From Acidimicrobiales bacterium (GTDB lineage Bacteria > Actinomycetota > Acidimicrobiia > Acidimicrobiales > Aldehydirespiratoraceae): a stretch of DNA of 64,000 nt. Where the stretch lies: positions 408,369 to 472,368 of the forward strand of contig JAWPML010000001.1 in assembly GCA_033344915.1 (NCBI GenBank), read 5' to 3'. The number at the start of each line of letters is the position of its first letter. Position 1 is the stretch's first letter. The translations under genes were made by a program, and so were the position numbers. This document shows, one piece after another, positions 2,515-64,000 of the stretch. The notes under the pieces are model-generated. The model was not told the DNA's origin. It did not search any database and saw only the letters and a list, made by a program, of their open reading frames with translations.

Positions 2515-3390
2515 TCAGAGGAAGATGCGGCTGAGGTCGGCGACGCGGTCCGGCGTGAGGCACGCCTCGCCGACGGCGGCGGCGGCGATGATCAGGCCGA
2601 TCGAGGCCGTGGCCCGGTCCTCGGCGACGGCGAGCAGGTAGTCGACCTCGAAGCCCACCAGGAACGGCACGGCGCAACGGGACTCGGTGCCCGTCAGCCC
2701 CGCCGCCTCGAGCGTGAGTCGGAGCTCGCGGGTGCAGTCCACGCTGGCGACGGCCGGCGGGATCTCGTCGGGGTCGACATAGCGGAACAGGAAGGTGGCG
2801 GCCTCGGCGCGGGAGACGACGGCATTCGGCGAGAACGTGGTCGCGCTCGTTCCGGTCGTGATCAGGTTCTCCGACATCCAGGAGATGGCTTCCTGCTGGT
2901 AGCTGCGGGTGACATCACGGAACGGATGCCGGGTCACGGCGTCGGGTTCGCCGGCGTAGCGCCACAGCATCACGGCGAAATCGCCGCGGGTGATCGAGGC
3001 ATCGGGGTCGTACGTCCTCGCCGAGACGCCGGTGGTCAGCCCGGTGGCGTACAGCCAGCCGACGGGCTCCTGCTGATACGACGCCGTGACGTCGACGAAC
3101 GGGTGCGGGCCGCTCTGGGGGTTGTTCCCCAGGCTGCGGTCGAGCCGATGGAGGAAGGCGGCGACCTGGCCGCGGGTCACATCGACGTCGGGGCCGAAGC
3201 AACCGATCTCGATGCCCTCGGTGATGTCCTCACCGACCATCCACTGGACGGCTTCGGTGTAGAAACGATCCGACTCGACATCGCCGAACCCGGCGGCGGC
3301 GCCGGCGGTGCCGGTCTGCGTGGCCAGGATGCCGATCACGAACGTGATCAGGACGATGAGGCGGGAGCGCGTGCGCGTGTGACTTCGCAT
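2515..3390 (-). CDS. secreted protein with three SLH (S-layer homology) repeats and a C-terminal unknown domain
   Basis: Start chosen at MRSHTRTRSRLIVLITFVIGILA (signal/anchor). Three repeats of the F(G/V/R)DV..Y...V.W......T.G......P....TR...A.FL.R type are present. Confidence 0.8.
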   Translation of the reverse strand: MRSHTRTRSRLIVLITFVIGILATQTGTAGAAAGFGDVESDRFYTEAVQWMVGEDITEGIEIGCFGPDVDVTRGQVAAFLHRLDRSLGNNPQSGPHPFVDVTASYQQEPVGWLYATGLTTGVSARTYDPDASITRGDFAVMLWRYAGEPDAVTRHPFRDVTRSYQQEAISWMSENLITTGTSATTFSPNAVVSRAEAATFLFRYVDPDEIPPAVASVDCTRELRLTLEAAGLTGTESRCAVPFLVGFEVDYLLAVAEDRATASIGLIIAAAAVGEACLTPDRVADLSRIFL

Positions 3391-3589
3391 GATGGGGGGA
3401 ACATCCTTGGTCGAGGAGGCCGTCGGCACATCGGACCCCGCCCGCAGGAGTGCGGACCCGGGGAGTGCCGAACGGTGGACACTGGTCGATTCGACCGCCA
3501 AGGGTACCGGTAGGACCCGATTCGACTCCCGACGCGTGACCAACGTCACCTACGCTCCCGGCGTGCCGTCCCCGCCCGTCCCCGTTCCC

Positions 3590-4318
3590 GTGCGCCGTGT
3601 GCTCATCGTGATGGCGATGGAGATCGAGGCCGCCCCGCTGCGAGAGGCCCTCGGCGCGGCCCCTGTGGCCTCGCCGGACTGGGCGGACGCCCTCCCGTGC
3701 CGCCTCGCGACCTCGCCGGCGACGGCGTCTCGTCCCGAGGTGCTGCTCGCCGTCAACGGTGCTGATCCGCTGACGGGTGTGCCGTGCATCGGCACCACCG
3801 CGGCCGCGCTGACGACCCAGGTGGCGTTGACGGCCGGTCCGCCGCCGGACCTGGTGCTCTCCATCGGCACGTGTGGCGGATGGGCCCGTTCCGGCGCATC
3901 GATCGGCACCACGTATCTCGCCTGGCCCCACTTCTCCTGCCACGATCGGCGCATCGCCCTGCCGGGGATGCAGGCGTTCGCCGACGGTGACCTCGCGGCG
4001 GCCGACCTGCGGGTCCACGCCGCGCCCCTCGGCTGCGAACTGGGCATCGTCACCACCGGCGACAGCCTTGACGAATCGCCGACCGACCGCGAGCGCATCC
4101 TCGCGAACGGTGGTGTCGCCAAGGAGATGGAGGCCGCGGCGGTGGCATGGATCGCCCATCTCCACGGGATCCCGGTGAGCGGGGTCAAGACCGTGACGGA
4201 TTTCGTGGACGCCGACGAGCCGACCGCCGAGCAGTTCACGGCGAACCTCGCGGCGGCGTCGTCGGCGCTGCAATCCACCACCCTCGCGTTGCTCGGCCGT
4301 CTCGCCGGTCCAGAATGA
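3590..4318 (+). CDS. MTA/SAH nucleosidase-like (PNP_UDP_1 family)
   Basis: GTG start gives VRRVLIVMAMEIEAAPL. The C-terminal GVKTVTDFVDADEPTAEQFTANL resembles plant-type methylthioadenosine nucleosidases. Confidence 0.7.
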   Translation: MRRVLIVMAMEIEAAPLREALGAAPVASPDWADALPCRLATSPATASRPEVLLAVNGADPLTGVPCIGTTAAALTTQVALTAGPPPDLVLSIGTCGGWARSGASIGTTYLAWPHFSCHDRRIALPGMQAFADGDLAAADLRVHAAPLGCELGIVTTGDSLDESPTDRERILANGGVAKEMEAAAVAWIAHLHGIPVSGVKTVTDFVDADEPTAEQFTANLAAASSALQSTTLALLGRLAGPE

Positions 4319-5601: not shown

Positions 5602-6264
5602 ATGCCGGAGCATCGTCGGCAGGGCCTGACGCTCGCGATCGCGGTCGGGGTCGTGGCGATGACGTTCGGTGTCCTCGCCGACGCGGCCGGACTGTCGCTC
5701 CCGCAGATCCTCGTGATGTCCGCGCTCGTCTTCACCGGCGCGTCGCAGTTCGCCGCCGTCTCGGTGATCGACGGCGGCGGTTCGGGTGGAGCGGCCGTCG
5801 GCTCGGCGATGCTGCTCGCCGCCCGCAACGCCCTGTACGGCCCGGTGCTCGCGAAGATCCTGCCGGGCCGGGGGCTGTCCCGGATGGCCGCTGCGCACCT
5901 GACGATCGACGAGACGACCGCGATGGCAACGGTGCAGGACGACGCGGAGACGGCGGCCGACGCCTTCTGGTGGACCGGGATCTGGCTGTGGTCGCTGTGG
6001 GTCCTCGGTTCGCTCGGTGGGGCGCTGATCGGCGCCGCGATCGGCGAGCCGGAGACGTGGGGACTCGATGCGGCGTTCCCCGCCGCGTTCATCTCGCTGC
6101 TCGCGCCCCATGTGCGCACCGCGCCCGGCCGCGTCGCCGCGATCCTCGGCGCCGGCCTCGCCATCGCGATGGTACCGATCTCGCCCGCCGGCGTACCGCT
6201 GCTCGTGGCGGCACTCGCCGTCGGGCCGGCGCTCGCCTGGAAGGTCAGGGAGGAAGACCGGTGA
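5602..6264 (+). CDS. azlC: AzlC family branched-chain amino acid exporter subunit
   Basis: Polytopic membrane protein. AzlC-like N-terminus (TFGVLA...GLS..Q...MSALVFTGASQF). Followed by a small AzlD-like gene with a 4-nt overlap. Confidence 0.8.
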   Translation: MPEHRRQGLTLAIAVGVVAMTFGVLADAAGLSLPQILVMSALVFTGASQFAAVSVIDGGGSGGAAVGSAMLLAARNALYGPVLAKILPGRGLSRMAAAHLTIDETTAMATVQDDAETAADAFWWTGIWLWSLWVLGSLGGALIGAAIGEPETWGLDAAFPAAFISLLAPHVRTAPGRVAAILGAGLAIAMVPISPAGVPLLVAALAVGPALAWKVREEDR

Positions 6265-6593
6265 GCTGGTCGGCGATCATCGTCCTGGTGGCGGGGAGCT
6301 TCGGGTTCAAGCTCTTCGGACACGTCGTGCTGGCGAGGTTCGCCGTCGACGAGGGCTCCCGGAGCGGGGTCCTGCGCTGGTTCCCCGACCTCGCCGGCCT
6401 CATCCCGGCCGCGCTCTTCGCCGCCCTCATCGCCGTGCAGACCTTCAGCCTCGACGAGTCGCTCACGATCGACGCCCGGGCCGCCGGCCTCGTCGCCGGC
6501 GCCATCGCGGTCTGGCGTCGGGCCCCGTTCGTGCTCGTCGTGATCCTGGCGATGACCGTCACGGCCGCGATTCGCTGGCAGACTTCTGGGTGA
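6261..6593 (+). CDS. azlD: AzlD family branched-chain amino acid transport protein
   Basis: GTG at 6261 overlaps the azlC stop. About 110-aa hydrophobic protein (VSWSAIIVLVAGSFGFKLFG...). Confidence 0.7.
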   Translation: MSWSAIIVLVAGSFGFKLFGHVVLARFAVDEGSRSGVLRWFPDLAGLIPAALFAALIAVQTFSLDESLTIDARAAGLVAGAIAVWRRAPFVLVVILAMTVTAAIRWQTSG

Positions 6594-7861
6594 TGACCGA
6601 GCCCCAGCGCATCGTCGTGACCGGTGGCCACCGCTTGGAGGGGACCATCCGGGTCGGTGGCGCCAAGAACAGCGCGCTCAAGCTCATGGCTGCCACGCTG
6701 TTGGCCGAGGGCACGTACCGCTTCGGCAATGTTCCCCGCATCACGGACGTCGCGCTGATGTCCGATCTGCTGCGGGCCACCGGTACCGAGGTCGGGTGGG
6801 ACGAGTCGGGTGACGAGCCGATCCTCGAGATCACCGTCCCGGGCACCATCGAACCGGTGGCGCCCTACGAGCTCGTCGAGCAGTTCCGAGCCTCGATCGT
6901 GGTGCTCGGGCCGATGCTCGCTCGCTGCGGCGAGGCACGGGTGGCCCTGCCCGGCGGCGACGACTTCGGCCCGCGGCCGATCGACATGCACATGCGGGGG
7001 CTCGCCGAGCTCGGCGCGGACTTCGAGACCCGCCACGGCTACATCCACGCGAGCGCGCCCAACCTCCTCGGCGCCCGTGTCCTGCTCGAGTACCCGAGCG
7101 TCGGCGCCACCGAGAACCTGCTGATGGCCGCCGTGCTCGCAAAGGGGACGACGGTTGTCGACAACGCGGCCCGTGAGCCGGAGATCGCGGACCTCTGCGA
7201 GCTGTTGAACAAGATGGGCGCCCGCATCGAAGGGTCGGGGTCCTCGACGCTGGTGATCGAAGGCGTCGAGACGCTGCATTCGTCCGACCACACGGTGATC
7301 CCGGACCGTATCGAGGCCGCGACGTACCTGGCCGCGCTCGGGATCGCCGGCGGCGAGGTCACCGTGGCCGGGGCCCGCCACGACCACATGGCCATGCTGT
7401 GTCAGAAGTTCGGCGAGATGGGCATGCGCATCTCGCCCGACTCCGGCGGCATCTGGGCGTTCGCCGGCACTCGGCTGCGGTCGAGCGACTGCTCGACCCT
7501 GCCGTATCCGGGGCTCGCGACCGACTTCAAGCCCTTCCTCGTCGCGGCGCTGGCCACCGCCGACGGCGTCGGCATCGTGACCGAGAACGTCTTCTCCGGT
7601 CGCTTCCGCTATGTCGACGAACTCCGACGCATGGGTGCCGACATCCGCACCGACAGCCACCACGCCGTGGTGCGCGGGGTCGAGCGCCTGTCGGGCGCGC
7701 CGGTGAAGGCCCACGACATCCGCGCCGGCGCCGCGCTCGTGATCGCAGGATTGGCGGCGGAGGGAGAGACGGTGGTGGCCGAGGCGCACCATGTCGCCCG
7801 CGGCTACGACGACATCGCCGGGAAGCTAAACGCGCTCGGAGCCGACGTCCGGGTCATCTGA
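6593..7861 (+). CDS. murA: UDP-N-acetylglucosamine 1-carboxyvinyltransferase
   Basis: MTEPQRIVVTGGHRLEGTIRVGGAKNSALKLMAATLLAEG and EPT-family similarity along the full length. Start is at 6593 or GTG 6590. Confidence 0.95.
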   Translation: MTEPQRIVVTGGHRLEGTIRVGGAKNSALKLMAATLLAEGTYRFGNVPRITDVALMSDLLRATGTEVGWDESGDEPILEITVPGTIEPVAPYELVEQFRASIVVLGPMLARCGEARVALPGGDDFGPRPIDMHMRGLAELGADFETRHGYIHASAPNLLGARVLLEYPSVGATENLLMAAVLAKGTTVVDNAAREPEIADLCELLNKMGARIEGSGSSTLVIEGVETLHSSDHTVIPDRIEAATYLAALGIAGGEVTVAGARHDHMAMLCQKFGEMGMRISPDSGGIWAFAGTRLRSSDCSTLPYPGLATDFKPFLVAALATADGVGIVTENVFSGRFRYVDELRRMGADIRTDSHHAVVRGVERLSGAPVKAHDIRAGAALVIAGLAAEGETVVAEAHHVARGYDDIAGKLNALGADVRVI

Positions 7862-7984
7862 CGCCTGGGCGAGGGCGCGGCGGCGGGCGACCCAGAGCAA
7901 CAGGGCGAAGACGGAGACCGGCCCGGCGACGAGGATGATCTCGTCCCATCCGCCCTGGTGGGCCAGCAGCAGTCCCGTCGCCAT
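7826..7984 (-). CDS. small membrane protein (52 aa), below ORF-track cutoff
   Basis: Own translation: MATGLLLAHQGGWDEIILVAGPVSVFALLLWVARRRALAQASDDPDVGSERV. It has one TM helix and very high GC3. The 3' end overlaps the murA 3' end convergently. Confidence 0.45.
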   Translation of the reverse strand: MATGLLLAHQGGWDEIILVAGPVSVFALLLWVARRRALAQASDDPDVGSERV

Positions 7985-8042
7985 ACCGCCACCCTACGGA
8001 ATACCGTGCCGATGTCGGTGTTGAGGAAGGTGGCTGCCACAC

Positions 8043-8342
8043 TTGGAGGCGTCCACCCCCGTTCGGATCCGGAGTGCTGCGTTGCGCGAGCAGGTCGAGA
8101 AGGTCATCACCGCCATCCGTCCGGCCATTCAGGCGGACGAGGGCGACATCGAGTTGATCGAGGTCGACGAGGCCTCCGGCGTCGTGACCGTCGAACTCAA
8201 GGGCGCGTGCGTCACCTGCCCGGCCTCGACCCAGACACTGAAAGCCGGCATCGAGCGGATCATGAAGGACCGCGTGGACGGCGTCACCGAGGTCGTCGAG
8301 ATCAACGCCCTCGGAATGAGCGAGAGCGCGGTCTCGCTCTAG
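8043..8342 (+). CDS. NifU C-terminal-domain (Nfu-like) Fe-S cluster protein
   Basis: Motif GDIELIEVDE..GVVTVELKGACVTCPASTQTLKAGIE (CxxC). TTG start as given by the track. Confidence 0.8.
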   Translation: MEASTPVRIRSAALREQVEKVITAIRPAIQADEGDIELIEVDEASGVVTVELKGACVTCPASTQTLKAGIERIMKDRVDGVTEVVEINALGMSESAVSL

Positions 8343-10882
8343 CGGGAGCGCACCGCGGCGAGATTGCAGGCGTTGTTGATCAGACCGAGGTGGCTGTAGG
8401 CCTGCGGATGGTTCCCGAGCCCGCGACCGCTCACCGGGTCGACCTCCTCGGGAATCAGGCCGGTGGGCCCGGCGAGCTCCACATAGGCGGCGAAGAGCTC
8501 CTCGGCGCCGTCGACGTCGCCGATCAGGAGCTTGGCGTCGATCAACCAGCTGGTCATGAGGTTGAAGCCGCCCTCCTCACCGGGCAGGCCGTCCTCGTGC
8601 TTGTAGCGGTAGACGGTGTGGCCGCTGCGCAGCCAGGTCTCGACGGCGTCGACGGTCGCCCGGAAGCGGGAATCGTCGGCATCGACGAGCCCGAACAGGC
8701 CGATGGCGAGCACCGAGGCGTCGAGGTCGGTGCCGTCGTACGCGGTGGTGAACGAACCCACCTCGTCGTTCCAGCCGTTGGTGAGGATGTCCTTCTCGAT
8801 CTGGTCGCGCAGCGTGATCCACTCCGGCCGCTCCCGGCCGAACACGGTCTCGGCGATGCCGATCGCCCGGTCGACCGTGACCCAGCACATCACCTTCGAG
8901 TTGGTGTGGTGGCGCGGCGCCGAACGCACTTCCCAGATCCCCTGGTCGGGCTCCATCCAGCGCTGGTTCACCGCGGCGACGAGATCCTCGACGAGACGCC
9001 AGTGTCTCGTGGAGAGCGGGGCGTTGATCTCGCCGAGCTGGTGGATGAGTTCGAGCACCGGGCCGAACACGTCGAGCTGTACCTGGTGGTCGGCCGCGTT
9101 GCCGACCCGGACCGGTCGGGAACCGGCATAGCCGGCCAGCTCCTCGATCGAGGCCTCGGGAGGCAGCGACTGACCGTTGACGGTGTAGAGCGGTGACAGC
9201 CGCTCCGGGCCGACATCGCTCGTCTCGATGACGCGGAGGAGCCAGTCGAGCAGGTCCATCGCCTCGTCGATCGAGCCGAGACGCACGAGCGCGCCGGCCG
9301 ACATGGACGCGTCGCGGATCCAGCAGTAGCGGTAGTCCCATTGGCGCACGCCGCCGATGTGCTCGGGCAGGCTGGTCGTGGCGGCCGCGAGGATGGCACC
9401 CGTCGGGCCGTAGCAGAGCGCCTTGAGCGTGAGCGCGGAACGGCGGACGAGGTCGGGTTCGACGACGGGGAGGTCGAGCCGGGCGGCCCACTCGGCCCAG
9501 AACGCGATCGTGCGATCGCGCCGGTCCGCCTCATCGCTGCGATCCGGCCGCATCGATGCCGTGCCACACCGCAGCTCGAGGATGACCGGCCCGTTCGCCA
9601 GGTCGACCTCGGCCGTCGCCGTCTGGTGCATGCCATGGTCGATGACCTGCCAGTCGACGCCCGGCGCTCGGAGCACGACGAGGTCCTGCGCGTTCGTGAC
9701 CTCCAGGCCGCCGTCCCGCAGTTCGAGCTGGGTGGGGAACCGCCCGAAATCGAGCCGAGGGGCGAACTCGACGATCGCCGTGCCCGTGCCCTCGATGACC
9801 CGGACGAGATCGGTGCGGCCGGAGATCCGATGCGGCCGGCCGTCCGAACAGTCGAGATAGTCGGTGACGGACATGGACTCCCAGGACGTGCGCAGGACGA
9901 GCGAGTCGTCGTCGTAGACCTGGACGGGATCGCCGTCCGGTGTCGACGGGCGCACCGAGAAGTGACCCGCCGGCGGACCCCCGAGCAGTTCGGCGAAGAT
10001 CGCGCTCGAGTCGATGCGGGGGACACAGAGCCAGGTGATGCGGGCGTCCGGGGTGACGAGGGCCACGGTGCGCTGATCCGAGAGGATCGAGTGGTCCTCG
10101 ATGGCGGTGATGCCGGCGCCGGCCAACCACTCGGACCGCCGGGTGAACAGGGCCGCGAGGAGGACGGCGACGTCGTCGGGGGTGTCGACCCGGAAGCCGG
10201 CGGAGGTCTCGCCCTCGCCGACCTTCACCCCGACGTCGGGTCCGGCGAGCGTCGCGAACGCGTCCTCGTCGGTGACGTCGTCGCCGAGGAACAACACCGC
10301 GCCGGCGCCCACGCTCTGACGCACGGTGGTCAGCGCCAGGCCCTTGTCGGTCGGCACGAGCAGCAGCTCGCACACCATCTTCCCGTGGCGGACGGTCAGC
10401 TCGCCGACACGCCCCGCGATCTCGTCGAGCTCGGCCAGCACCCCATCGATCGCGGCCTCGTCGACGTTGCGATAGTGCACCGCCACGGAGGCGGGCTTCT
10501 TCTCGAGCGACAGGCCGTCATGGCGGTCGACGAGGGCGCGGAGATCGTCGAGGAGCGCCGAACGGCGCGCCCGGAGATCGGGATCCAGGTCGAGGGCGAA
10601 GTCGATGTCGAACTCCGTGCCGTGCGAGCCGACCAGATGGACTTCGGCCGGAAGCCGCGAGAGTGCGGCCAGATCGCGCAGTGAGCGGCCGGAGATCACC
10701 GCCACCTCGGTCTGGGGCAGCGCCGCGAGGTTGCGGAGGGCGACGCTGGTCTCCCGCAACGGGAGCGCCTTCATCGGATCGTTCACGATCGGGGCGACCG
10801 TGCCGTCGTAGTCCGAGGCGATCAGGAGCACCGGCTGCTGGGCGAGCTGGTCCAGTCGGGCGACCAGATCGGGGTTGGTCAT
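8339..10882 (-). CDS. fusion protein: trehalose-6-phosphate phosphatase (HAD, OtsB-like) + glycoside hydrolase family 15 (glucoamylase/trehalase-like)
   Basis: N-terminal part carries LLIASDYDGTVAPIV ... FLGDDVTDEDAF. C-terminal part carries GGVRQWDYRYCWIRDAS and an alpha/alpha-toroid-like region. Start chosen at MTNPDLV (10882). Confidence 0.8.
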   Translation of the reverse strand: MTNPDLVARLDQLAQQPVLLIASDYDGTVAPIVNDPMKALPLRETSVALRNLAALPQTEVAVISGRSLRDLAALSRLPAEVHLVGSHGTEFDIDFALDLDPDLRARRSALLDDLRALVDRHDGLSLEKKPASVAVHYRNVDEAAIDGVLAELDEIAGRVGELTVRHGKMVCELLLVPTDKGLALTTVRQSVGAGAVLFLGDDVTDEDAFATLAGPDVGVKVGEGETSAGFRVDTPDDVAVLLAALFTRRSEWLAGAGITAIEDHSILSDQRTVALVTPDARITWLCVPRIDSSAIFAELLGGPPAGHFSVRPSTPDGDPVQVYDDDSLVLRTSWESMSVTDYLDCSDGRPHRISGRTDLVRVIEGTGTAIVEFAPRLDFGRFPTQLELRDGGLEVTNAQDLVVLRAPGVDWQVIDHGMHQTATAEVDLANGPVILELRCGTASMRPDRSDEADRRDRTIAFWAEWAARLDLPVVEPDLVRRSALTLKALCYGPTGAILAAATTSLPEHIGGVRQWDYRYCWIRDASMSAGALVRLGSIDEAMDLLDWLLRVIETSDVGPERLSPLYTVNGQSLPPEASIEELAGYAGSRPVRVGNAADHQVQLDVFGPVLELIHQLGEINAPLSTRHWRLVEDLVAAVNQRWMEPDQGIWEVRSAPRHHTNSKVMCWVTVDRAIGIAETVFGRERPEWITLRDQIEKDILTNGWNDEVGSFTTAYDGTDLDASVLAIGLFGLVDADDSRFRATVDAVETWLRSGHTVYRYKHEDGLPGEEGGFNLMTSWLIDAKLLIGDVDGAEELFAAYVELAGPTGLIPEEVDPVSGRGLGNHPQAYSHLGLINNACNLAAVRSR

Positions 10883-12885: not shown

Positions 12886-13626
12886 TCAGTCGATCGAGCG
12901 GCGATACACCGTCACGTGGACGTCCGCGTCGGCGGTGAACGGCTCGCCCCGCCAGCCGCCGTCACGCCGCTCGACCGTGAAGCCCGCCGCCGTGAACAGG
13001 TCGTCGAGCTGGTCGGGCGTGCGGTAGTGGAGCTCCCAGGGACGCATCCGCACTCCGGCCCCGGTGACGTCGATGTGTTGGCCGCGGATCACCTGGGCGT
13101 CGGCGTCGTGCTGTGAGGCGCTGATCACCGCCCGGTCCGTGGTGATCTCGCGCACGGACACCCCGCCGTCGGTGAGCCCGTCGGCCGGCGGGACGAAGCC
13201 CTCGATGACCACGCAGCCACCCGGCTGGACCGCCGTGGCGAGAACCGCCGCACAGCGCGCCTGGGCGTCGGTCGAGGTGAGGTTGAAGAAGGTGTTGAAC
13301 GCGGCGAACGCCACGGCGAACGAATCGGGCTCTACCGGCGGATCCGCCATGTCGGCTTCGAGGACCGTGATCGCGTCGGCGCCCGGCTTGGCCCGGAGTC
13401 GGTCGAGCATCGCCCGTGACGCGTCGATTCCGGTCACCGCCAGCCCGGCCGCGGCGAGCGGCAGGGCGAGTCGGCCGGTGCCGACGCCGAGTTCGAGCAC
13501 GGGACCGCCGTCGGCGAGCGCGGTGATCCCGGCCACGGTCGCGGCGACATCGCTGACGTCGCCGTACCAGTCGTCGTACACGTCGGCGAAGCTCTCGCCG
13601 TAGGTCTCCGGTCCGTACCTCTGCAC
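12886..13626 (-). CDS. class I SAM-dependent methyltransferase
   Basis: SAM motif I VLELGVGTGRLALPLA and the GIDAS...ML motif. Confidence 0.85.
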   Translation of the reverse strand: MQRYGPETYGESFADVYDDWYGDVSDVAATVAGITALADGGPVLELGVGTGRLALPLAAAGLAVTGIDASRAMLDRLRAKPGADAITVLEADMADPPVEPDSFAVAFAAFNTFFNLTSTDAQARCAAVLATAVQPGGCVVIEGFVPPADGLTDGGVSVREITTDRAVISASQHDADAQVIRGQHIDVTGAGVRMRPWELHYRTPDQLDDLFTAAGFTVERRDGGWRGEPFTADADVHVTVYRRSID

Positions 13627-13670
13627 GCTCGCAGTCTGCCGTGGCCGGGCCGAGTCCGTAGGCTGAGGCG

Positions 13671-14843
13671 ATGGACACCGGCGGCGCCACGCCCGAGATC
13701 TACCTCGACCATGCTGCGTCCACGCCGGTGCGCCCCGAGGCTCGGGACGCCTGGCTCGCGGCGACCGACACCCACCACGCCAACCCGACCGGGTCCCACA
13801 AGGCGGCGCGCGCCGCCCGCCGGGCCCTCGACGACGCCCGCGACGCAGTCGCCGCGGCGTTGGGTCGTCCGCCCGCCGAGTTGATCTTCACCAGCGGCGG
13901 CTCGGAGGCCGACAATCTGGCGGTGCGGGGCGTCCTGGCCGCGCGTGGCGGTGTGGCGGTGTGCTCGGCGGGGGAGCACCATGCCGTGCTCGAACCGGTC
14001 GAACACGCGGGCGGCGTGACGGTCGGTCTCGACGAGACCGGGCGGGTCGCGCCGGACGACCTGGCCGACCTGCTCGACGGGCGCGACGACGTGTCGATCG
14101 TGTCGCTCATCGCGGTCAACAACGAGACCGGCGCGGTCAACGACCTGCCGGCGCTCGCCGCGGTCGTGCGCGACCACGCGCCCGGTGCGCTGATCCACAC
14201 CGACGCGGTGCAGGCGTTGAGCTGGGTCGACGTCGCGGAGGTGGCGGCCGACGCCGACCTCGTGTCGATCACCGGCCACAAGGTGGGAGGCCCGATCGGC
14301 ACCGGCGCTCTGTTCGTGCGCCAGGGCGTGGAACTCGGGGCCCAGATCCTCGGCGGCGGTCAGGAACGGGGGCGGCGGGCGGGCACCCCCGACGTGGCCG
14401 GTGCCGCGGCGTTCGCGGCCGCCGTGGAGGCCACCGTCGAGCGGCGTGAGTCCGAGGTCGCCCGGCTGGGTGCGCTCCGCGACCGTCTGATCGCGGGGCT
14501 GGTCGACGAGCTGGGCGACGTCGTCACCCCCACCATCGCCCGACCGGGTGACGTCGCGCGGGTCGCCGCGGGGATCGCCCACGTGATCCTCGCGGACATC
14601 GAAGCCGAGGCCCTGCTGTTCCTGCTCGACCAGCAGGGCATCCGCGCGTCGGCCGCCTCGTCGTGTTCGTCCGGCGCGCAGGACCCGTCGCACGTGCTCG
14701 CCGCAATGGGCGTGCCCCGGGAGGTCGCCCAGGGATCGCTACGGCTGTCGCTCGGGTGGACGTCCACCGAGGCCGACGTCGACGCGGCGCTCGCGATCAT
14801 CCCCGACGCGGTGCATCACCTCCGCGCCCACGGCGGCGGCTGA
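13671..14843 (+). CDS. cysteine desulfurase (NifS/IscS class V aminotransferase)
   Basis: ITGHKVGGPIGTGALFVR (PLP lysine) and SSCSSGAQDPSHVL (active-site Cys loop). Lies near mnmA. Confidence 0.9.
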   Translation: MDTGGATPEIYLDHAASTPVRPEARDAWLAATDTHHANPTGSHKAARAARRALDDARDAVAAALGRPPAELIFTSGGSEADNLAVRGVLAARGGVAVCSAGEHHAVLEPVEHAGGVTVGLDETGRVAPDDLADLLDGRDDVSIVSLIAVNNETGAVNDLPALAAVVRDHAPGALIHTDAVQALSWVDVAEVAADADLVSITGHKVGGPIGTGALFVRQGVELGAQILGGGQERGRRAGTPDVAGAAAFAAAVEATVERRESEVARLGALRDRLIAGLVDELGDVVTPTIARPGDVARVAAGIAHVILADIEAEALLFLLDQQGIRASAASSCSSGAQDPSHVLAAMGVPREVAQGSLRLSLGWTSTEADVDAALAIIPDAVHHLRAHGGG

Positions 14844-58954: not shown

Positions 58955-59599
58955 TCAGTGTTGACCGAGGCCCCAGCGACGGATCCAGGTGTGCATGGCG
59001 ATCCCGGCGGCGACGCCGGCGTTGATCGAGCGGGTCGATCCGAACTGGGCGATGGAACACGTCATCGTGGCGGCCTGGCGCGCCTCCGGTGAGAGGCCCG
59101 GGCCCTCCTGGCCGAAGAGGAGCACGCCGTGTTCGGGAAGCTCCACCGTCTCGATCGGCACGGATCCGGCCACATTGTCGACGCCGACGATCGGGAGGCC
59201 GGCGGCGGTGGTCCAGTCGACCAGATCGGCGATGGTCGGGTGGTGGTCGATGTGCTGGTAGGCGTCGGTCATCATGGCGCCGCGGCGGTTCCACTTCCGG
59301 CGGCCGACGATGTGCACCCGGGCCGCAAGGAAGGCGTTGGCCGTGCGCACGACGGTGCCGATGTTGCGGTCGTGCTCCCAGTTCTCGATGGCGACGTGGA
59401 ACGGGTGGCGACGCTCGTCGAGGTCGGCGACGATCGCCTCGACCGTCCAGTAGCGATATCGATCGAGCACGTTGCGCCGGTCACCCTCGGCCAGCAGCGT
59501 CGGATCGAGCCGGGGATCGTCAGGCCACGGCTCGGGATGCGGCCCGACGCCCACCTCGGCCGCATCGCCGGGAAGCGACTCCGGCCCGGGCGGTGTCAC
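58955..59599 (-). CDS. SpoU/TrmH family RNA 2'-O-methyltransferase
   Basis: NIGTVVRTANAF, LLFGQEGPGLS, IAQFGSTRSINAGVAAGIAM. GTGA overlap with the htpX stop. Confidence 0.85.
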   Translation of the reverse strand: MTPPGPESLPGDAAEVGVGPHPEPWPDDPRLDPTLLAEGDRRNVLDRYRYWTVEAIVADLDERRHPFHVAIENWEHDRNIGTVVRTANAFLAARVHIVGRRKWNRRGAMMTDAYQHIDHHPTIADLVDWTTAAGLPIVGVDNVAGSVPIETVELPEHGVLLFGQEGPGLSPEARQAATMTCSIAQFGSTRSINAGVAAGIAMHTWIRRWGLGQH

Positions 59600-60924
59600 C
59601 GACCCGCTCGTCCCGATCGCCGGGGCGGGCGGGGGAGTCGGCTACGGCGGGCGTTGGTCGGCGCCATCCGATTGCGATCCGGGATGTGGTGGCGGTGTTC
59701 GGTCCAGCGCCTGCCGTCCCAGTAGCGCAGGGCCCCGTCGTCGCTCTCGGGGTCGTGGTACCAGCCGGCCGGTGCGTGGTCCGGGTCGTCGTCCTCCTCC
59801 GCGACCTCACCCATTCCCGGGAAGACGGCGGCGAGATCGACTGTGGCCAGCGCCGAGTCCGCACTCCCGGCGAGCGATGCGCTCACCCCGCGGGGTACGC
59901 CGCTGACGGCCCGATCGTCCTGCATCGTGCGCAACGACTCCGCCACGACGGGGTCGGGGCCCTCGTACGGCGGCAGGCCCTCCATCTGGCGCAGGATGTC
60001 GATGCGCTCGCTGAGCGGCGGGTGAGTGCTGAACATCTCGTTGAACTTGCGGCCGCGGGCACCGGTCTCCTGGTCGTCGGGCGACTCGATCCACAGATGC
60101 GAGGTGGCATGCGAGGTGCGTCGCACGACCGTGATGTCCGCATCGAGCTTCTCCAGGGCCTGGCGCAGTCCGCCCGGGTAGCGGGTGATCTCGACGGCGG
60201 TGGCGTCCGCCAGCGACTCGCGCGAACGGCTGACCGCAGCCCGGAGGAGGGCGGCGGCGAGCGGCGCCAGCACGGCCACCACGATCATGCCGATGAAAAT
60301 GATCGGGTTGGGACCGTTGTTCCCGTCGTTGCTGCGGCGCCGGTGCGAGGCGCCGCCGCCGGTCAGCGCGCCCCAGTAGAGCATCCGCCAGAAGATGTCG
60401 GCGATCAGGGCGATCGCTCCCGCGGTGGCGACGGCGACCGTCATCACCAGGATGTCGCCGTTGCGGATGTGGGCGATCTCGTGGGCGATCACGCCCTCGA
60501 GCTCCGCGCGGTTCATCTTGTCCATCAGTCCGGTGGTGACGGCGACCGCCGCGGTCTCGGGCTTGCGCCCCGTGGCGAAGGCGTTGGGGGACGGGTCGTG
60601 CACGACGAACACGCGGGGCTGCGGGACGCCGGCGGCGAGCGAGACCTCGGCGACCAGATTGTGGAGTCGGGAGTATTCGGAGGGGTCGGCCTCCACCGCG
60701 CGGGTGGCCCGCAACGCGATGGTGTCGCTCTGGAAATAGCTGGCGAAGGTGAGGCCGAACGACGCGCCGACACCGATGATCACGCCCACGATGCCACCGC
60801 CGAGCGAGAGCGAGATCACCGCGCCGACCACGCCGAGCAGCACGAAGAAGGCGAACAGGAGCACCCAGGTGCGGCGCCGGTTGCGCGCGATCAGGTCGTA
60901 GAAGTCGGGGCGGTCGCCGGCCAT
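59596..60924 (-). CDS. htpX: M48 family zinc metalloprotease HtpX with C-terminal DUF2510-like extension
   Basis: HEIAHIRNGD (HExxH), two TM pairs, C-terminal GWYHDPESDDGALRYWDGRRWTEH. Confidence 0.88.
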   Translation of the reverse strand: MAGDRPDFYDLIARNRRRTWVLLFAFFVLLGVVGAVISLSLGGGIVGVIIGVGASFGLTFASYFQSDTIALRATRAVEADPSEYSRLHNLVAEVSLAAGVPQPRVFVVHDPSPNAFATGRKPETAAVAVTTGLMDKMNRAELEGVIAHEIAHIRNGDILVMTVAVATAGAIALIADIFWRMLYWGALTGGGASHRRRSNDGNNGPNPIIFIGMIVVAVLAPLAAALLRAAVSRSRESLADATAVEITRYPGGLRQALEKLDADITVVRRTSHATSHLWIESPDDQETGARGRKFNEMFSTHPPLSERIDILRQMEGLPPYEGPDPVVAESLRTMQDDRAVSGVPRGVSASLAGSADSALATVDLAAVFPGMGEVAEEDDDPDHAPAGWYHDPESDDGALRYWDGRRWTEHRHHIPDRNRMAPTNARRSRLPRPPRRSGRAGR

Positions 60925-61001: not shown

Positions 61002-61553
61002 GTGATGGACGTCCTCGTCGCCCTCCACAGCGCTGCCGCGCTCCTGCTGCTGGTCGCGGGGGTGGCCAAGATCGTGCGGCCCGCGCCGACCGGTGACCTT
61101 CTCGCCACCCTGGGTCTGCCCGGCTCCGACGCCGTCGCGGTCGGCGTCGGTGGGGTGGAGACGGTCGTCGGCGTCGTCGCCCTCGCCGTCGGTGGACCAC
61201 TCACAGCCGCCCTCGTCGGCGCGTTCTACGTCGCGTTCGCCGGGATCGTCGTGCGGGCGATGCGGGCCGGCGCCGCGTCCTGCGGTTGCTTCGGTCGCGT
61301 CGACGCGCCGCCGTCGTGGATCCACGTGATCGGCAATGCCGCCCTCGCCGCGGTCTCGTTCGCCGCCATCGCCGGCGACGCGCCGGTCGAGGTCATGGAG
61401 GACCAACCGGCCGGCGGCGTGGGATTCGTCCTGGTCGTCGGTGTGCTCGCCGGCCTCGCCCTCGTCGCGTTCACCGCCCTCCCCGAGGCGATGGGTGCTC
61501 GGCGGCCCGGTCCGGCCCGTCCGGAGTTCCGCATCGACGGCGACGCGTCATGA
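61002..61553 (+). CDS. MauE/DoxX-like redox-associated membrane protein
   Basis: Four-five TM helices and the CGCFG motif (AASCGCFGRVD). ATGA overlap with the next gene. Confidence 0.7.
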   Translation: MMDVLVALHSAAALLLLVAGVAKIVRPAPTGDLLATLGLPGSDAVAVGVGGVETVVGVVALAVGGPLTAALVGAFYVAFAGIVVRAMRAGAASCGCFGRVDAPPSWIHVIGNAALAAVSFAAIAGDAPVEVMEDQPAGGVGFVLVVGVLAGLALVAFTALPEAMGARRPGPARPEFRIDGDAS

Positions 61554-62713
61554 GCCGCCGTCTGGTCGGTGCCCTCAGCCGCGTCGTCGACGGCCGCTCG
61601 TCGCGACGGGGCTTTCTCTCGAAGTCCGCCCTGGGCGCGACGGCCATGGCGGTGGCGCCGTCCGCCTACGTGTTGCGGCCCACCACGGCGCACGCCGCGA
61701 TCTGCTCGTGCGCGGGCAGCGACTGTGACTGCGGGAGTCGGTGCTGCGATGGCTACACCGACTTCTGCTGCCAGGTCACGGGGGAGAACCTCTGCCCGCC
61801 CGGCACCATCGTCGCCGGCTGGTGGAAGGCCGACGGCAGCGGGTTCTGCGACGTCGACGGCGATCCGCGGCCCCGCTACTACCTGGACTGCAACCTGCCC
61901 TGCGACGACGGCTGTGGATGCTCCGGCTCCGGCGTCTGCGCGTCGGCGTGCACCTCCGCCGACTGCCGTTGCCTCGAGGGCTGCGGCTCCCGGGCCGTCG
62001 AGTGCACCCGATTCCGCTACGGCCAGTGCAACCAGGACGTGGAGTGCGTCGGGCCGATCGCGTGCCGGATCGTCACCTGTGTCGTGCCGTGGCAGTGGGA
62101 TCCGTCCTGTGACGACACGCCGGCCACCGACAACCAGACCGCGTTCCACGACCGTGCCTGTCTGCACGAGGGCTTCACCGACGTCGCGCCGAACAGCTGG
62201 TACACCGAGGCCGTCGGCTGGGCGTCCGAGAACGAGATCACCACCGGCTACAACAACGACATCTTCGGGCCCAACGAGCCGGCGCTGCGGTCCCACCTCG
62301 CCACGTTCCTGTGGCGCTACCAGGGGAACCCGCAGGCGACGTCCGCGCCCTCGTTCGTGGATGTGCCCGCGGACAGCTGGTATGCCGACGCTGTCGCGTG
62401 GATGGCCGAGGAGGAGATCACCACCGGCACCGCGCCGGGCCGCTTCTCGCCGGATCAGGTCGTCACCCGGGCCGAGGCGGTCACGTTCCTGTGGCGCCTC
62501 GCCGGTCGTCCCCATTCGTCGGTCGAGCTCCCGTTCGTCGACGTGCCCGCCAACAGTTTCTACCGGCGGCCGGTGCAGTGGGCGTTCGAGCACGGGCTCA
62601 CCGAGGGCATCAACGGCTGGCTGTTCGGCGGTCTGCTCGATGTCGACCGGGCCCAGGCCGTCACCTTCCTGTACCGCTACGACCAGGCGTTCGGCGTGGT
62701 GGTGCCGACATGA
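61550..62713 (+). CDS. Tat-exported Cys-rich methylamine-dehydrogenase-light-chain-like domain fused to three SLH repeats
   Basis: Twin-arginine signal SRRGFLSKSALGATAMAVAP. By my count, 26 Cys in about 160 aa. The stretch ...CCQVTGENLCPPGTIVAGWW...YYLDC resembles MauA ...CDCSGGSLTNCPPGTKLATASW...YRDCC. Three SLH repeats follow (F.DVP..SWY..AV.W). Confidence 0.7.
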   Translation: MSRRLVGALSRVVDGRSSRRGFLSKSALGATAMAVAPSAYVLRPTTAHAAICSCAGSDCDCGSRCCDGYTDFCCQVTGENLCPPGTIVAGWWKADGSGFCDVDGDPRPRYYLDCNLPCDDGCGCSGSGVCASACTSADCRCLEGCGSRAVECTRFRYGQCNQDVECVGPIACRIVTCVVPWQWDPSCDDTPATDNQTAFHDRACLHEGFTDVAPNSWYTEAVGWASENEITTGYNNDIFGPNEPALRSHLATFLWRYQGNPQATSAPSFVDVPADSWYADAVAWMAEEEITTGTAPGRFSPDQVVTRAEAVTFLWRLAGRPHSSVELPFVDVPANSFYRRPVQWAFEHGLTEGINGWLFGGLLDVDRAQAVTFLYRYDQAFGVVVPT

Positions 62714-63405
62714 TCGTGCTCGTCATCGTGCAGACGATCGCGATCGCCGTGCTGGCCGTGATCGTCTTCGGCCTGCTTCGCACCCACGCCGACATCCTCC
62801 GGGCGCTCGATCGTGCCGGCGTCCCGCTCGAGGACGGCCCGGCGGCGGGCGGCGTCGGCCCGGTCCCGGTCGCGGACCCGCGGGCGAAGCCGACCGTGAG
62901 CGACGTGGTCGGGACGGTCCCCGGCGGCGGACCCGTCTCCGTCTCGGTCGGCGGCGAGGGTCACACGCTGCTCGCCTTTCTGTCGTCCGGCTGCCGGACC
63001 TGTCAGACCTTCTGGTCCGAGTTCACCGCGCCGACGCTGGAGTTGCCGGGCACCGACACCCGGCTCGTGATCGTCGCGCAGGACCCCGCCCACGACAGCG
63101 AGTCGAAGCTCGCCGAACTCGCGCCGGCCGGGGTGCGGACCGTTTGCTCCTCCGCGGCGTGGCACGCCTACGAGGTGCCCGGCTCGCCGTACTTCGTGCT
63201 GGTCGACGGCGACGAGGGCCGCATCGTCGGATCCGGCACGGCGACCGGCTGGCCCCAGGTCCACGCCCTTCTCGAGCAGGCCCTGGGTGACGAGGCCCTC
63301 GACGGATCCGCTGACGCCGCGCTCACGGCATCCGGCATCGGCCCGGGGCACCCGTCGCTGTATCCGGACGAGTCCGGCCCCGCGCTCCCCGAGGACGTCG
63401 ACTGA
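62710..63405 (+). CDS. membrane-anchored thioredoxin-fold thiol:disulfide oxidoreductase (TlpA/ResA/MauD-like)
   Basis: N-terminal TM helix, then the CxxC motif LLAFLSSGCRTCQTFW. ATGA overlap with the upstream gene. Confidence 0.75.
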   Translation: MIVLVIVQTIAIAVLAVIVFGLLRTHADILRALDRAGVPLEDGPAAGGVGPVPVADPRAKPTVSDVVGTVPGGGPVSVSVGGEGHTLLAFLSSGCRTCQTFWSEFTAPTLELPGTDTRLVIVAQDPAHDSESKLAELAPAGVRTVCSSAAWHAYEVPGSPYFVLVDGDEGRIVGSGTATGWPQVHALLEQALGDEALDGSADAALTASGIGPGHPSLYPDESGPALPEDVD

Positions 63406-63470
63406 TGGTTGCCGTGCTCGTGGTCATGGTGGCGGTCACGGCCGCTGTTCGGGCGGCCTGGTCGCCTTGA
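63405..63470 (+). CDS. 21-codon hydrophobic ORF (MVAVLVVMVAVTAAVRAAWSP) ending in TGA, in frame with the next gene
   Basis: Own translation. TGATG overlap with the thioredoxin stop. High GC3. See the finding on the in-frame TGA. Confidence 0.35.
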   Translation: MVAVLVVMVAVTAAVRAAWSP

Positions 63471-63479
63471 GGCACGTCG

Positions 63480-64000
63480 ATGCTGACCAGCATCACTCCG
63501 CTCGGTGAGCGGGGACGGGGAAATCGATGGCGGATCACCGCCGCGTGGTTGGTCGCCGGCCATCTCGTGGGCGGTGCGGCGCTCGGCGGTGTGCTCGCCG
63601 GCCTCGGCGCGCTGGCTGCGCTCGCCGCGCCGGATCTGTTCTCCGGCGGTGGCGACGACACGACCGTCGTCGCGGTCGTCGCCGCGGTCGCCGGTCTGGG
63701 CGTCGCCTTCGACCTGGCCGGAGGGCGCATCCCGGGGCGGCGCCAGGTCGACGAGCGCTGGCTGAACACCTACCGCGGTTGGGTCTACGGCTTCGGCTTC
63801 GGCGTCCAGCTCGGGGTCGGCATGGTCACGGTCGTCAACACGGCCCTGTTCGCGGCCGTGCTCGTCGCCGGCCTGTTGCTGTCGCCGCCAGCGGCCTTCG
63901 GGCTGAGCGTGCTCTACGCCGGCACGCGGGGGATCGCCGCGGTCGCCAGCGGGCGGGTCCGTTCGGTGGCCGACCTCCATCGCCTCCATCAGGCCCTGGA
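63480..64000 (+). CDS. polytopic membrane protein of unknown function (3' end outside window)
   Basis: Own translation: MLTSITPLGERGRGNRWRITAAWLVAGHLVGGAALGG...RQVDERWLNTYRGWVYGFGFGVQLGVGMVT... Strong GC3, open to the window end, not in the ORF track. Confidence 0.65.
   Translation, partial: MLTSITPLGERGRGNRWRITAAWLVAGHLVGGAALGGVLAGLGALAALAAPDLFSGGGDDTTVVAVVAAVAGLGVAFDLAGGRIPGRRQVDERWLNTYRGWVYGFGFGVQLGVGMVTVVNTALFAAVLVAGLLLSPPAAFGLSVLYAGTRGIAAVASGRVRSVADLHRLHQAL

Follow-up and report, generated by a model that had tools for sequence, protein, structure and literature searches.

An Acidimicrobiia operon with MauE-, MauD- and MauF-like genes, a wall-anchored Cys-rich protein and a predicted membrane selenoprotein

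The window analysed here, a stretch of 64,000 nucleotides from an Acidimicrobiales bacterium, ends within an operon of five translationally coupled genes, conserved throughout the class Acidimicrobiia, and it contains the first four of these genes (Table 1). These encode a MauE-like membrane protein, a Cys-rich precursor with a twin-arginine translocation (Tat) signal and a cell-wall anchor, a MauD-like thioredoxin-fold protein, and a MauF-like membrane protein with an in-frame TGA codon that we read as selenocysteine (Sec). The genes overlap at each junction (ATGA at 61550-61553 and 62710-62713, and TGATG at 63403-63407), and the G+C content of the locus sequence is 70-75%. A preliminary description of this DNA, made from the sequence alone, listed five open reading frames (ORFs) linked by such overlaps. 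The ORF positions and three of the overlaps are real, but that between the fourth and fifth ORFs is not; these two lie in the same frame one TGA apart, and the apparent 21-codon hydrophobic ORF (63405-63470) and the ORF from 63480 together form the single MauF-like gene, so that the window holds four genes and not five. The second of these ORFs had been called a Cys-free polytopic membrane protein, and it does lack Cys codons, although it appears Cys-free because its single predicted redox residue is written as TGA. A MauE/MauA-like/MauD trio beside unrelated genes is thus better described as a MauE-A'-D-F cluster, the last two ORFs being the MauF homologue. The cluster extends past the window end, as had been proposed: the MauF-like gene is cut, and the downstream sequence was taken from L001, a 6.3-kb Logan contig that carries the identical locus, encodes an identical Cys-rich protein, and has the MauE-like gene at 627-1175, the complete MauF-like gene at 3027-3707, and the fifth gene beyond it.

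Table 1. Features of the operon. Coordinates are those of the window unless a contig is named; SECIS, selenocysteine insertion sequence; SLH, S-layer homology.
Feature	Position	Strand	Details
MauE-like ORF	61005..61553 (alternative GTG start 61002)	+	182 aa from ATG 61005
Tat-exported Cys-rich SLH-anchored precursor	61550..62713	+	387 aa
MauA-type twin-arginine leader	61550..61696	+	residues 1-49, ...GRSSRRGFL...AHA/A
Cys-rich head domain	61697..62176	+	residues 50-209, ~160 aa, 26 Cys
Three SLH repeats, cell-wall anchor	62171..62710	+	PF00395
MauD-like thioredoxin-fold protein	62710..63405	+	231 aa
MauF-like membrane protein, predicted selenoprotein	63405..64000 (cut by window end; full end about 64085)	+	226 codons
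In-frame TGA read as selenocysteine	63468..63470	+	residue 22, motif WSP-U-G
SECIS-like hairpin 1	63479..63494	+	GAUGCU-N4-AGCAUC, starts 8 nt after UGA
SECIS-like hairpin 2	63497..63513	+	7 bp, starts 26 nt after UGA, GGN loop about 33 nt after UGA
Fifth operon gene, 150 aa	beyond window; L001 3707-4159		

The MauF-like gene starts at ATG 63405, and this start overlaps the MauD-like stop codon, so translational coupling continues into it. The two ORFs share a frame and read ...AAWSP-stop-GTSMLTSITPLGER..., and MauF at the matching point reads ...STWSPCGYSSLCLLRPVGRQ...; the TGA aligns with the Cys of the MauF WSPCG motif, whereas the second MauF Cys (in CGYSSLC) is absent, and there is a single Sec or Cys in each MauF-like protein. 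When the window protein is read through with Cys at this position it matches MauF across the TGA (BLASTP 1e-7), with WSPCG identical, and Methylobacterium extorquens MauF matches 57 of the family membrane-protein ORFs by phmmer, with E-values down to 3.7e-18. The family as a whole aligns with MauF at 96.2% (hhalign, P 2.1e-9), and L045, a member with Cys in place of the TGA, is 35% identical to MauF over 162 aa (E 4e-14). The read-through protein has no match to any Pfam or NCBIfam release 20 model, DsbD_2 (PF13386) included, and a homologue in locus L003 falls just short of the DsbD_2 gathering score (23.6 bits against 24.9, E 5.4e-5). Gene callers split the gene at the TGA, which hides it from annotation.

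Translation upstream of each family member reveals a conserved transmembrane helix followed by R-x-x-W-S-P-(stop or Cys)-G-x-S-M-L. At the variable site, 54 sequences have TGA (those of 53 distinct loci and of the window), nine have TGC and two have TGT, and TAA and TAG do not occur. The 11 Cys-type loci (L040, L042, L045, L051, L053, L061, L072, L074, L076, L077 and L080) encode longer MauF-like proteins of about 255-275 aa, and where a family or genus is named it is Microthrixaceae or Rhabdothermincola. These MauF-like genes are a distinct subgroup, and are placed either past the 150-aa gene or on the other strand; use of Sec or Cys therefore tracks a rearranged operon.

Two hairpins follow the TGA, and we compared the 54 nt from the TGA onwards in an alignment (A2) of 50 TGA-type sequences. 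Hairpin 1 is invariant, with 100% of its positions paired in all 50 and with synonymous sites included; the upstream Ser is always TCG and the next Ser always AGC. Hairpin 2 is 97% paired, with compensatory changes at three pairs (22 cells of the alignment), and pairing over both helices together is 98.5% of cells. At 0.123, the covariation score was reached by none of 500 shuffles (mean 0.066) and is above all of the slid controls. In the 11 Cys-type loci only 61.5% of cells are paired (67% in hairpin 1 and 57% in hairpin 2), despite the similarity of the encoded peptide. The minimum free energy fold of the window at 63475-63517 adds a 4-bp outer stem (CGUC/GACG) around both hairpins.

An alternative is that the TGA is a genuine stop codon, so that the region encodes a hydrophobic peptide of 21 residues and, separately, a membrane protein free of Cys. 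This is how standard gene callers annotate the region, and in the window there is an ATG 9 nt after the TGA. However, it does not account for the exclusive use of TGA among the stop codons or for the uninterrupted reading frame with a Cys codon in 11 loci; the G-x-S between the TGA and the ATG is conserved and aligns to MauF, the RNA helices are conserved only in loci of the TGA type, and in locus L066 the operon adjoins the genes for Sec synthesis and insertion. We therefore regard termination at this codon as highly improbable, and from these sequence comparisons the MauF-like gene appears to encode a selenoprotein of an apparently undescribed family. A recent inventory of 119 prokaryotic selenoprotein families contains no entry resembling a MauF-like or DsbD_2-like WSPUG protein (PMC13188914).

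Locus L066, on an Acidimicrobiales contig from a metagenome-assembled genome (DATFVX010000093.1), has a complete selD-selA-selB-tRNA(Sec) block at 5651-9762, which immediately precedes the operon on its strand. The block encodes an AIRS-type SelD, SelA (PF03841, 2e-98), SelB with GTP_EFTU, beta-barrel and wing domains, and a tRNA-SeC (9667-9762), and it is followed by the Cys-rich gene, the MauD-like gene, the MauF-like gene with its TGA, the 150-aa gene and, at the 3' end (13445-13966), the MauE-like gene. A different arrangement is seen in L124 (contig Ga0126306_10021310, 1-3353), where MauE-like and MauD-like ORFs come after the end of a SelA gene, with neither SelB nor a Cys-rich gene between; this may represent a second, different link of the Sec machinery to genes of the MauE and MauD types. 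The acidimicrobiial genus Actinomarina is reported to have selABCD universally, and each genome to encode some five selenoproteins, most of them uncharacterised (bioRxiv 10.64898/2026.04.03.716425).

The MauE-like ORF matches Pfam PF07291 well above the gathering cut-off (E 3.5e-15, 56.9 bits against 27), and the family aligns with M. extorquens MauE (hhalign 90.9%, P 1.2e-6). Its CGCFG motif, encoded at about 61281-61295, fits the definition of the active site as CXC followed by F-G, and is present in 72 of 84 MauE-like ORFs of related loci. MauE has been shown to complement an Escherichia coli dsbB deletion, with the CXC(FG) motif as the active site (bioRxiv 10.64898/2026.03.05.709764), and by analogy the window protein is probably a DsbB-like disulfide generator. 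One protein retrieved by the search of representatives, P0342 (624 aa), has a MauE domain (residues 7-112) upstream of a Cys-rich domain (181-386); the two may be genuinely fused, or two genes may have been merged by the gene caller.

The MauD-like protein has an N-terminal transmembrane helix and a CRTC motif, with the CxxC conserved in the family. Neither Pfam nor a PDB sequence search gave a match, and the similarity to the MauD model TIGR02661 is weak (E 5.5e-4, 19.4 bits against an equivalog cut-off of 188.6). Direct comparison with M. extorquens MauD, encoded in the mau cluster L085, gives BLASTP 1.2e-5 over 184 aa and phmmer 2.8e-7, and the family as a whole aligns with it (hhalign 95.1%, P 3.4e-8); we conclude from these alignments that the protein is homologous to MauD and is not its equivalog. 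The initial assignments of a CGCFG-containing MauE-like membrane protein and of a membrane-anchored CxxC thioredoxin in the MauD role are thus both upheld, the second with only a weak likeness to MauD. Of the profile searches that had been suggested, PF07291 matched, the methylamine dehydrogenase light chain family did not, and for the MauD-like protein Pfam gave nothing.

The gene arrangement is recurrent. Searches of six-frame ORFs of 84 related loci with hidden Markov models (HMMs) built from the window proteins identified a MauE-like gene in 81, a MauD-like gene in 79, a MauF-like gene in 64 and the 150-aa gene in 74, and the commonest order, E > Cys-rich > D > F > 150aa, recurs in about 80 species of Acidimicrobiia. 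Most of the 84 loci have the Cys-rich gene flanked by the MauE-like and MauD-like genes, with stop and start codons that overlap, and the trio that had been singled out for a survey of neighbourhood conservation proves to be strongly syntenic across the class. There is a departure in a Microthrixaceae chromosome (L037, 9704-11497), where a Cys-rich gene has no MauE-, MauD- or MauF-like gene and no 150-aa gene within 10 kb on either side; this may be a second, orphan paralogue.

The partners expected of a quinoprotein dehydrogenase are missing from the neighbourhood of the operon. We searched with phmmer using all 14 proteins of the Methylobacterium (M. extorquens) mau cluster L085, and at the sensitivity of phmmer with these queries there is no MauB, MauG, MauC, MauJ, MauL, MauM or MauN in the 84 loci (within 10 kb on either side) or in the 64-kb window. 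The preliminary description had reported no heavy chain, MauG or amicyanin, and had pointed to the downstream sequence as the place to look for them; L001 encodes none of the three downstream, and continues past the MauF-like gene with, in order, the coupled 150-aa gene, fpg (on the other strand) and an unrelated 382-aa ORF. An ordinary methylamine dehydrogenase (MADH) locus with its remaining genes beyond the window would explain the presence of MauE-, MauD-, MauF- and MauA-like genes, but it does not fit the genes that actually follow on L001, the lack of MauB, MauG and amicyanin from all of the loci, or the quite different appearance of the true mau cluster in L085, and we consider it scarcely credible.

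The fifth gene product lacks both a signal peptide and Cys and matches no described family; its own family has 83 proteins. Its AlphaFold2 (AF2) model (predicted local distance difference test score, pLDDT, 91.7) has an antiparallel sheet and a C-terminal helix, and Foldseek finds weak similarity to PsbP, EagT6 (DUF1795), Tsi3 and MucB (E about 0.02, template modelling score 0.3-0.4). Since these neighbours are weak, a role as a chaperone is only a guess. We also considered whether it is a relative of MauJ or MauL, and found no relation to either.

The second gene product has the Tat signal, Cys-rich segment and SLH anchor that the preliminary description had recognised. The Tat signal is matched by TIGR01409 (19.7 bits, cut-off 16.7), and the SLH repeats match PF00395 above the gathering score in three stretches (E 8.8e-27, 93.3 bits), with PDB matches to the SLH domains of Sap and SbsB. 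No Pfam, NCBIfam or PDB sequence match was found for the Cys-rich segment, PDB searches of the protein finding the SLH part only. The family comprises 274 proteins by a word-indexed search and 619 clusters at 50% identity by an exhaustive search of representatives, and at least 576 stretches are confirmed in GTDB species genomes, almost all of them named Acidimicrobiia; carriers include Microthrix, Aldehydirespirator, Rhabdothermincola and the cultured Salinilacustrithrix flava, whose locus (L083) is of the TGA type. The Cys-rich domain is always N-terminal, and the C-terminal modules vary among SLH, CWB2, LGFP, ricin lectin, DUF4214 and others of unknown type. Most of these (SLH, CWB2, LGFP and ricin) are wall-binding and thereby locate the head domain to the cell surface, and the family is probably a core surface component of the Acidimicrobiia. 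The number of Cys residues in the head domain is 22, 24 or 26 and always even, as fits complete disulfide pairing. Invariant residues (alignment A1) include D27, G28, C42-P43, G50-W51-W52, R69, Y71, D73 and F115-R116-Y117-G118.

The resemblance of this protein to the MADH light chain, MauA, is strong in the leader and weak in the mature domain. We gathered 120 MauA proteins, aligned the 115 that are full-length, and checked the MauA sequence against the PDB. The leader aligns with MauA leaders over 35 columns (hhalign 97.2%, P 3.4e-11), including the unusual segment before the RR motif, and a reversed-leader control gives P 0.079. Mature domains compared with each other give P 0.003 over 22 columns (DGxxCxCC...CPPGT), and global hhalign of the mature domains is uninformative. 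The motifs held in common follow the pattern DG...CPPGT...W...Y.DC. With the leader included, a MauA HMM places family members as the top four of 8,834 ORFs, at E-values of only 0.002-0.03; a mature-only HMM retrieves no protein with the Cys-rich domain from the same set, PF02975 (Me-amine-dh_L) has no match at E <= 1, and the Cys-rich domain has none in the PDB, by sequence or by profile, at E <= 10. Among the 150 matches listed in the exhaustive representative search, all strong family members, none forms a bridge to MauA. The AF2 model of the head domain (pLDDT 88.8) was compared by Foldseek with 350,542 PDB chains, and ranks one to seven are all light chains of MADH or aromatic amine dehydrogenase (AADH), at non-significant values (E 0.35-1.3, probability <= 0.2, template modelling score 0.22-0.38). 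The light-chain likeness proposed from sequence inspection therefore holds for the Tat leader and is weak for the mature part. When the MauE-, MauD- and MauF-like context is counted as well, we think it likely that the head domain is a remote, enlarged homologue of the MADH small subunit. It is not a functional member of the MauA family: in a low-confidence alignment the second Trp of the tryptophan tryptophylquinone (TTQ) cofactor is not conserved, and no MauB or MauG was found near the genes.

A further question is whether the head domain is itself an enzyme. It could be a stand-alone surface quinoprotein with a TTQ-like or cysteine tryptophylquinone (CTQ)-like cofactor at the invariant GWW, matured by the MauE-, MauD- and MauF-like proteins and acting with no heavy chain. 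A greedy, low-confidence extension of the alignment pairs MauA Asp32, Trp57 and Asp76 with the invariant D27, W51 and D73, and the MauA segment N-D-I-I-W108-C-F-G with N-Q-x-I-x-C-x-G, so that a local N-(D or Q)-x-(I or V)-x-C-x-G pattern resembles the Trp108 region. W52, R69, Y71 and FRYG are further invariant non-Cys residues, and both the first-ranked Foldseek matches and the leader are of the TTQ light-chain type. However, the column aligned to Trp108 is occupied by A, P, E or G; the residue equivalences come from the low-confidence extension; neither LodB/GoxB-like nor QhpG/QhpD-like genes are present in the gene calls of L001-L003; and no MauG was found in the 84 loci or in the window. 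The active site of MADH lies at the interface of the heavy and light chains, and no heavy chain is present here. The even Cys counts leave no spare Cys for a Cys-Trp link, and a CTQ-type crosslink is disfavoured by these counts. A self-sufficient quinoprotein of this kind is decidedly unlikely, and the cell-surface quinoprotein module suggested in the preliminary description is left unsupported. We regard as equally doubtful the more general proposal that GWW, the Asp residues and FRYG mark a protein-derived cofactor or catalytic site, in a heavy-chain-independent, wall-displayed redox enzyme derived from the MADH small subunit and dependent on the Sec-containing MauF-like protein for its biogenesis. 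If it were true, such proteins would form a new class of quinoproteins or redox proteins at the surface, in one of the actinobacterial classes most abundant in the environment.

The reading we favour, and consider probable with some reserve, is that the operon is dedicated to forming and editing disulfides outside the cytoplasm in a wall-anchored protein derived from MauA, and includes no quinoprotein dehydrogenase. The MauE-like protein, with its CGCFG motif, would act as a DsbB-like, quinone-linked generator of disulfides and would oxidise the CxxC of the membrane-anchored MauD-like thioredoxin, which in turn would install the 11-13 disulfides predicted in the head domain once it is outside the cytoplasmic membrane. 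The MauF-like protein, DsbD_2-like and polytopic, has as its sole predicted redox residue the Sec of WSP-U-G, located just after the first transmembrane helix; it may provide an opposing reduction or isomerisation, or some other selenol-dependent exchange, that correct pairing would require. The fifth gene product, a Cys-free and presumably cytoplasmic alpha/beta-sandwich protein, may chaperone the unusual leader. In this scheme the identities of the genes, their synteny, the lack of dehydrogenase partners near the operon and the Sec/Cys codon pattern with its SECIS-like structure are observed, and the direction in which electrons flow, the status of the Cys-rich protein as dedicated substrate and the roles of the MauF-like and fifth-gene proteins are inferred.

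As an alternative to a dedicated operon, the MauE-like and MauD-like proteins could form a housekeeping oxidative folding system of the DsbB/DsbA type, in which the Cys-rich protein is an accessory or one of many clients. MauE has been reported as a generalist in disulfide formation that occurs mostly in genomes without MauA (bioRxiv 10.64898/2026.03.05.709764), and the operon, with its 576 or more confirmed stretches, is near-universal in the class. This alternative does not readily explain why the Cys-rich gene is inserted between the E and D genes with overlapping codons, why its leader is specifically MauA-like, or why the E, D and F genes are the exact set tied to MauA maturation in mau clusters, and we judge it unlikely, though it deserves more weight than the other competing readings. 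A second alternative concerns the MauF-like protein alone, which could be a transporter, its Sec serving to bind a metal or metalloid and taking no part in thiol-disulfide exchange. The protein is polytopic and marginally DsbD_2-like, it has a single Sec or Cys and no redox pair, and several transporter subunits with Sec are described in a 2026 review (PMC13188914); metal or metalloid binding by Sec has been proposed for MerT-like, P-type ATPase and YeeE selenoproteins. However, the gene is always embedded between those for a thioredoxin-like protein and a disulfide-rich client, there are no metal-handling genes beside the operon in the gene calls of L001-L003, and a transport function is in our view very unlikely.

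Several observations weigh against a dedicated, Sec-dependent disulfide operon. The folding energy of the SECIS-like region is unremarkable in its GC-rich context (z = -1.29), and no Rfam family matches the region, so the case for a SECIS-like element rests on the comparative evidence. The sel genes adjoin the operon in only one of the 84 loci, and there are none within the 64-kb window; among 80 metagenomic SelA loci there is the one partial case of L124, metagenomes commonly contain close SelA relatives, and the adjacency is thus not general. The loop after the first transmembrane helix of the MauF-like protein is rich in Arg, and by the positive-inside rule the Sec could be placed near the cytoplasmic face. 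A protein with one redox residue is no simple fit to a DsbD-like electron relay, which in DsbD and CcdA uses two Cys residues. If MauE is a generalist, the operon could serve many substrates, and the invariant GWW, FRYG and two Asp residues hint at a role of the head domain beyond folding. Finally, selenium incorporation, disulfide content and the enzyme-substrate relations are all predictions.

A dedicated disulfide-forming and -editing operon would be of interest in several respects. The MauF-like proteins would constitute an apparently undescribed selenoprotein family, present in most of the sampled Acidimicrobiia, and polytopic and membrane-embedded, which is rare among selenoproteins. MauF is required for MADH biogenesis. 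Exchange of Sec and Cys classically marks a residue as catalytic and redox-active, and points to the WSPCG Cys as the functional centre of MauF itself. The combination of a MauE/MauD/MauF module with a MauA-type leader appears as a self-contained unit detached from amine oxidation; this lends support to the view, now emerging, that MauE is a general enzyme of disulfide formation, and suggests client-specific oxidative folding for a wall-anchored protein with 11-13 disulfides.

The genes flanking the operon are of other types. Upstream, on the minus strand, are an HtpX-like M48 peptidase (Peptidase_M48) and a SpoU methylase, in agreement with the original annotation of htpX and spoU on the opposite strand. 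The peptidase (59599-60924) has a C-terminal DUF2510 domain (E 4e-12); it diverges from the MauE-like gene and shares with it an intergenic region of ~80 bp, and co-regulation is therefore possible. The 382-aa ORF on the downstream side (L001, 5007-6155) has no Pfam match, follows fpg in no loci but the four closest (L001, L008, L010 and L011), and is probably unrelated to the operon. Nine loci (L013, L016, L017, L018, L020, L021, L027, L030 and L032) have a tRNA-Ala(TGC) gene just past the 150-aa gene, on the other strand and some 0.9-1.3 kb beyond the operon; the 64-kb window contains no tRNA genes. Scans for sigma-70 promoters and intrinsic terminators detected none, a result that is uninformative at 72% G+C.

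Comparison with known systems shows both departures and continuities. The TTQ light chains (2bbk_L, 1mae_L and 2agw_D) are the best and only coherent structural neighbours of the head domain and have the leader type and the motifs of the N-terminal half in common with it, but the Foldseek values are not significant, PF02975 does not match, and the head domain has no equivalent of Trp108 and no partner heavy chain. The Methylobacterium mau cluster in L085 has homologues of the MauE-, MauD- and MauF-like proteins, likewise clustered on one strand, and a cargo with a long MauA-type Tat leader and a disulfide-rich domain sharing the DG...CPPGT...W...Y.DC pattern. It differs in having MauB, MauG, amicyanin and MauJ/L/M/N, and in its order, F-B-E-D-A rather than E-A'-D-F. 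The cargo domain in Acidimicrobiia is about 160 aa rather than 125 aa, has 22-26 Cys rather than 12, is fused to wall anchors and does not conserve the second TTQ Trp; the MauF-like protein has one predicted redox residue, usually Sec, in place of CGYSSLC; and the mau hosts are Proteobacteria.

DsbB/DsbA and the VKOR/DsbA-like pairs also combine a membrane protein with an exposed Cys pair, corresponding to CGCFG here, and a thioredoxin-fold partner with CxxC, whereas the operon adds a specific Cys-rich client and a third membrane component with predicted Sec. The MauF-like protein resembles DsbD and CcdA (PF13386) in being polytopic, in its S-P-C-type motif at the first helix and in a marginal profile similarity (E 5.4e-5), although it stays below the gathering score and has one redox residue, mostly Sec, rather than a Cys pair in the first and fourth transmembrane helices. 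Although none of the 119 listed families corresponds to the MauF-like WSPUG protein, known prokaryotic selenoproteins (PMC13188914) such as the rhodanese/DsbD fusion-like TsoB, the MerT-like transporter and YeeE/YedE share with it an in-frame UGA at a Cys position that is closely followed by a hairpin, and likewise probably act in redox reactions.

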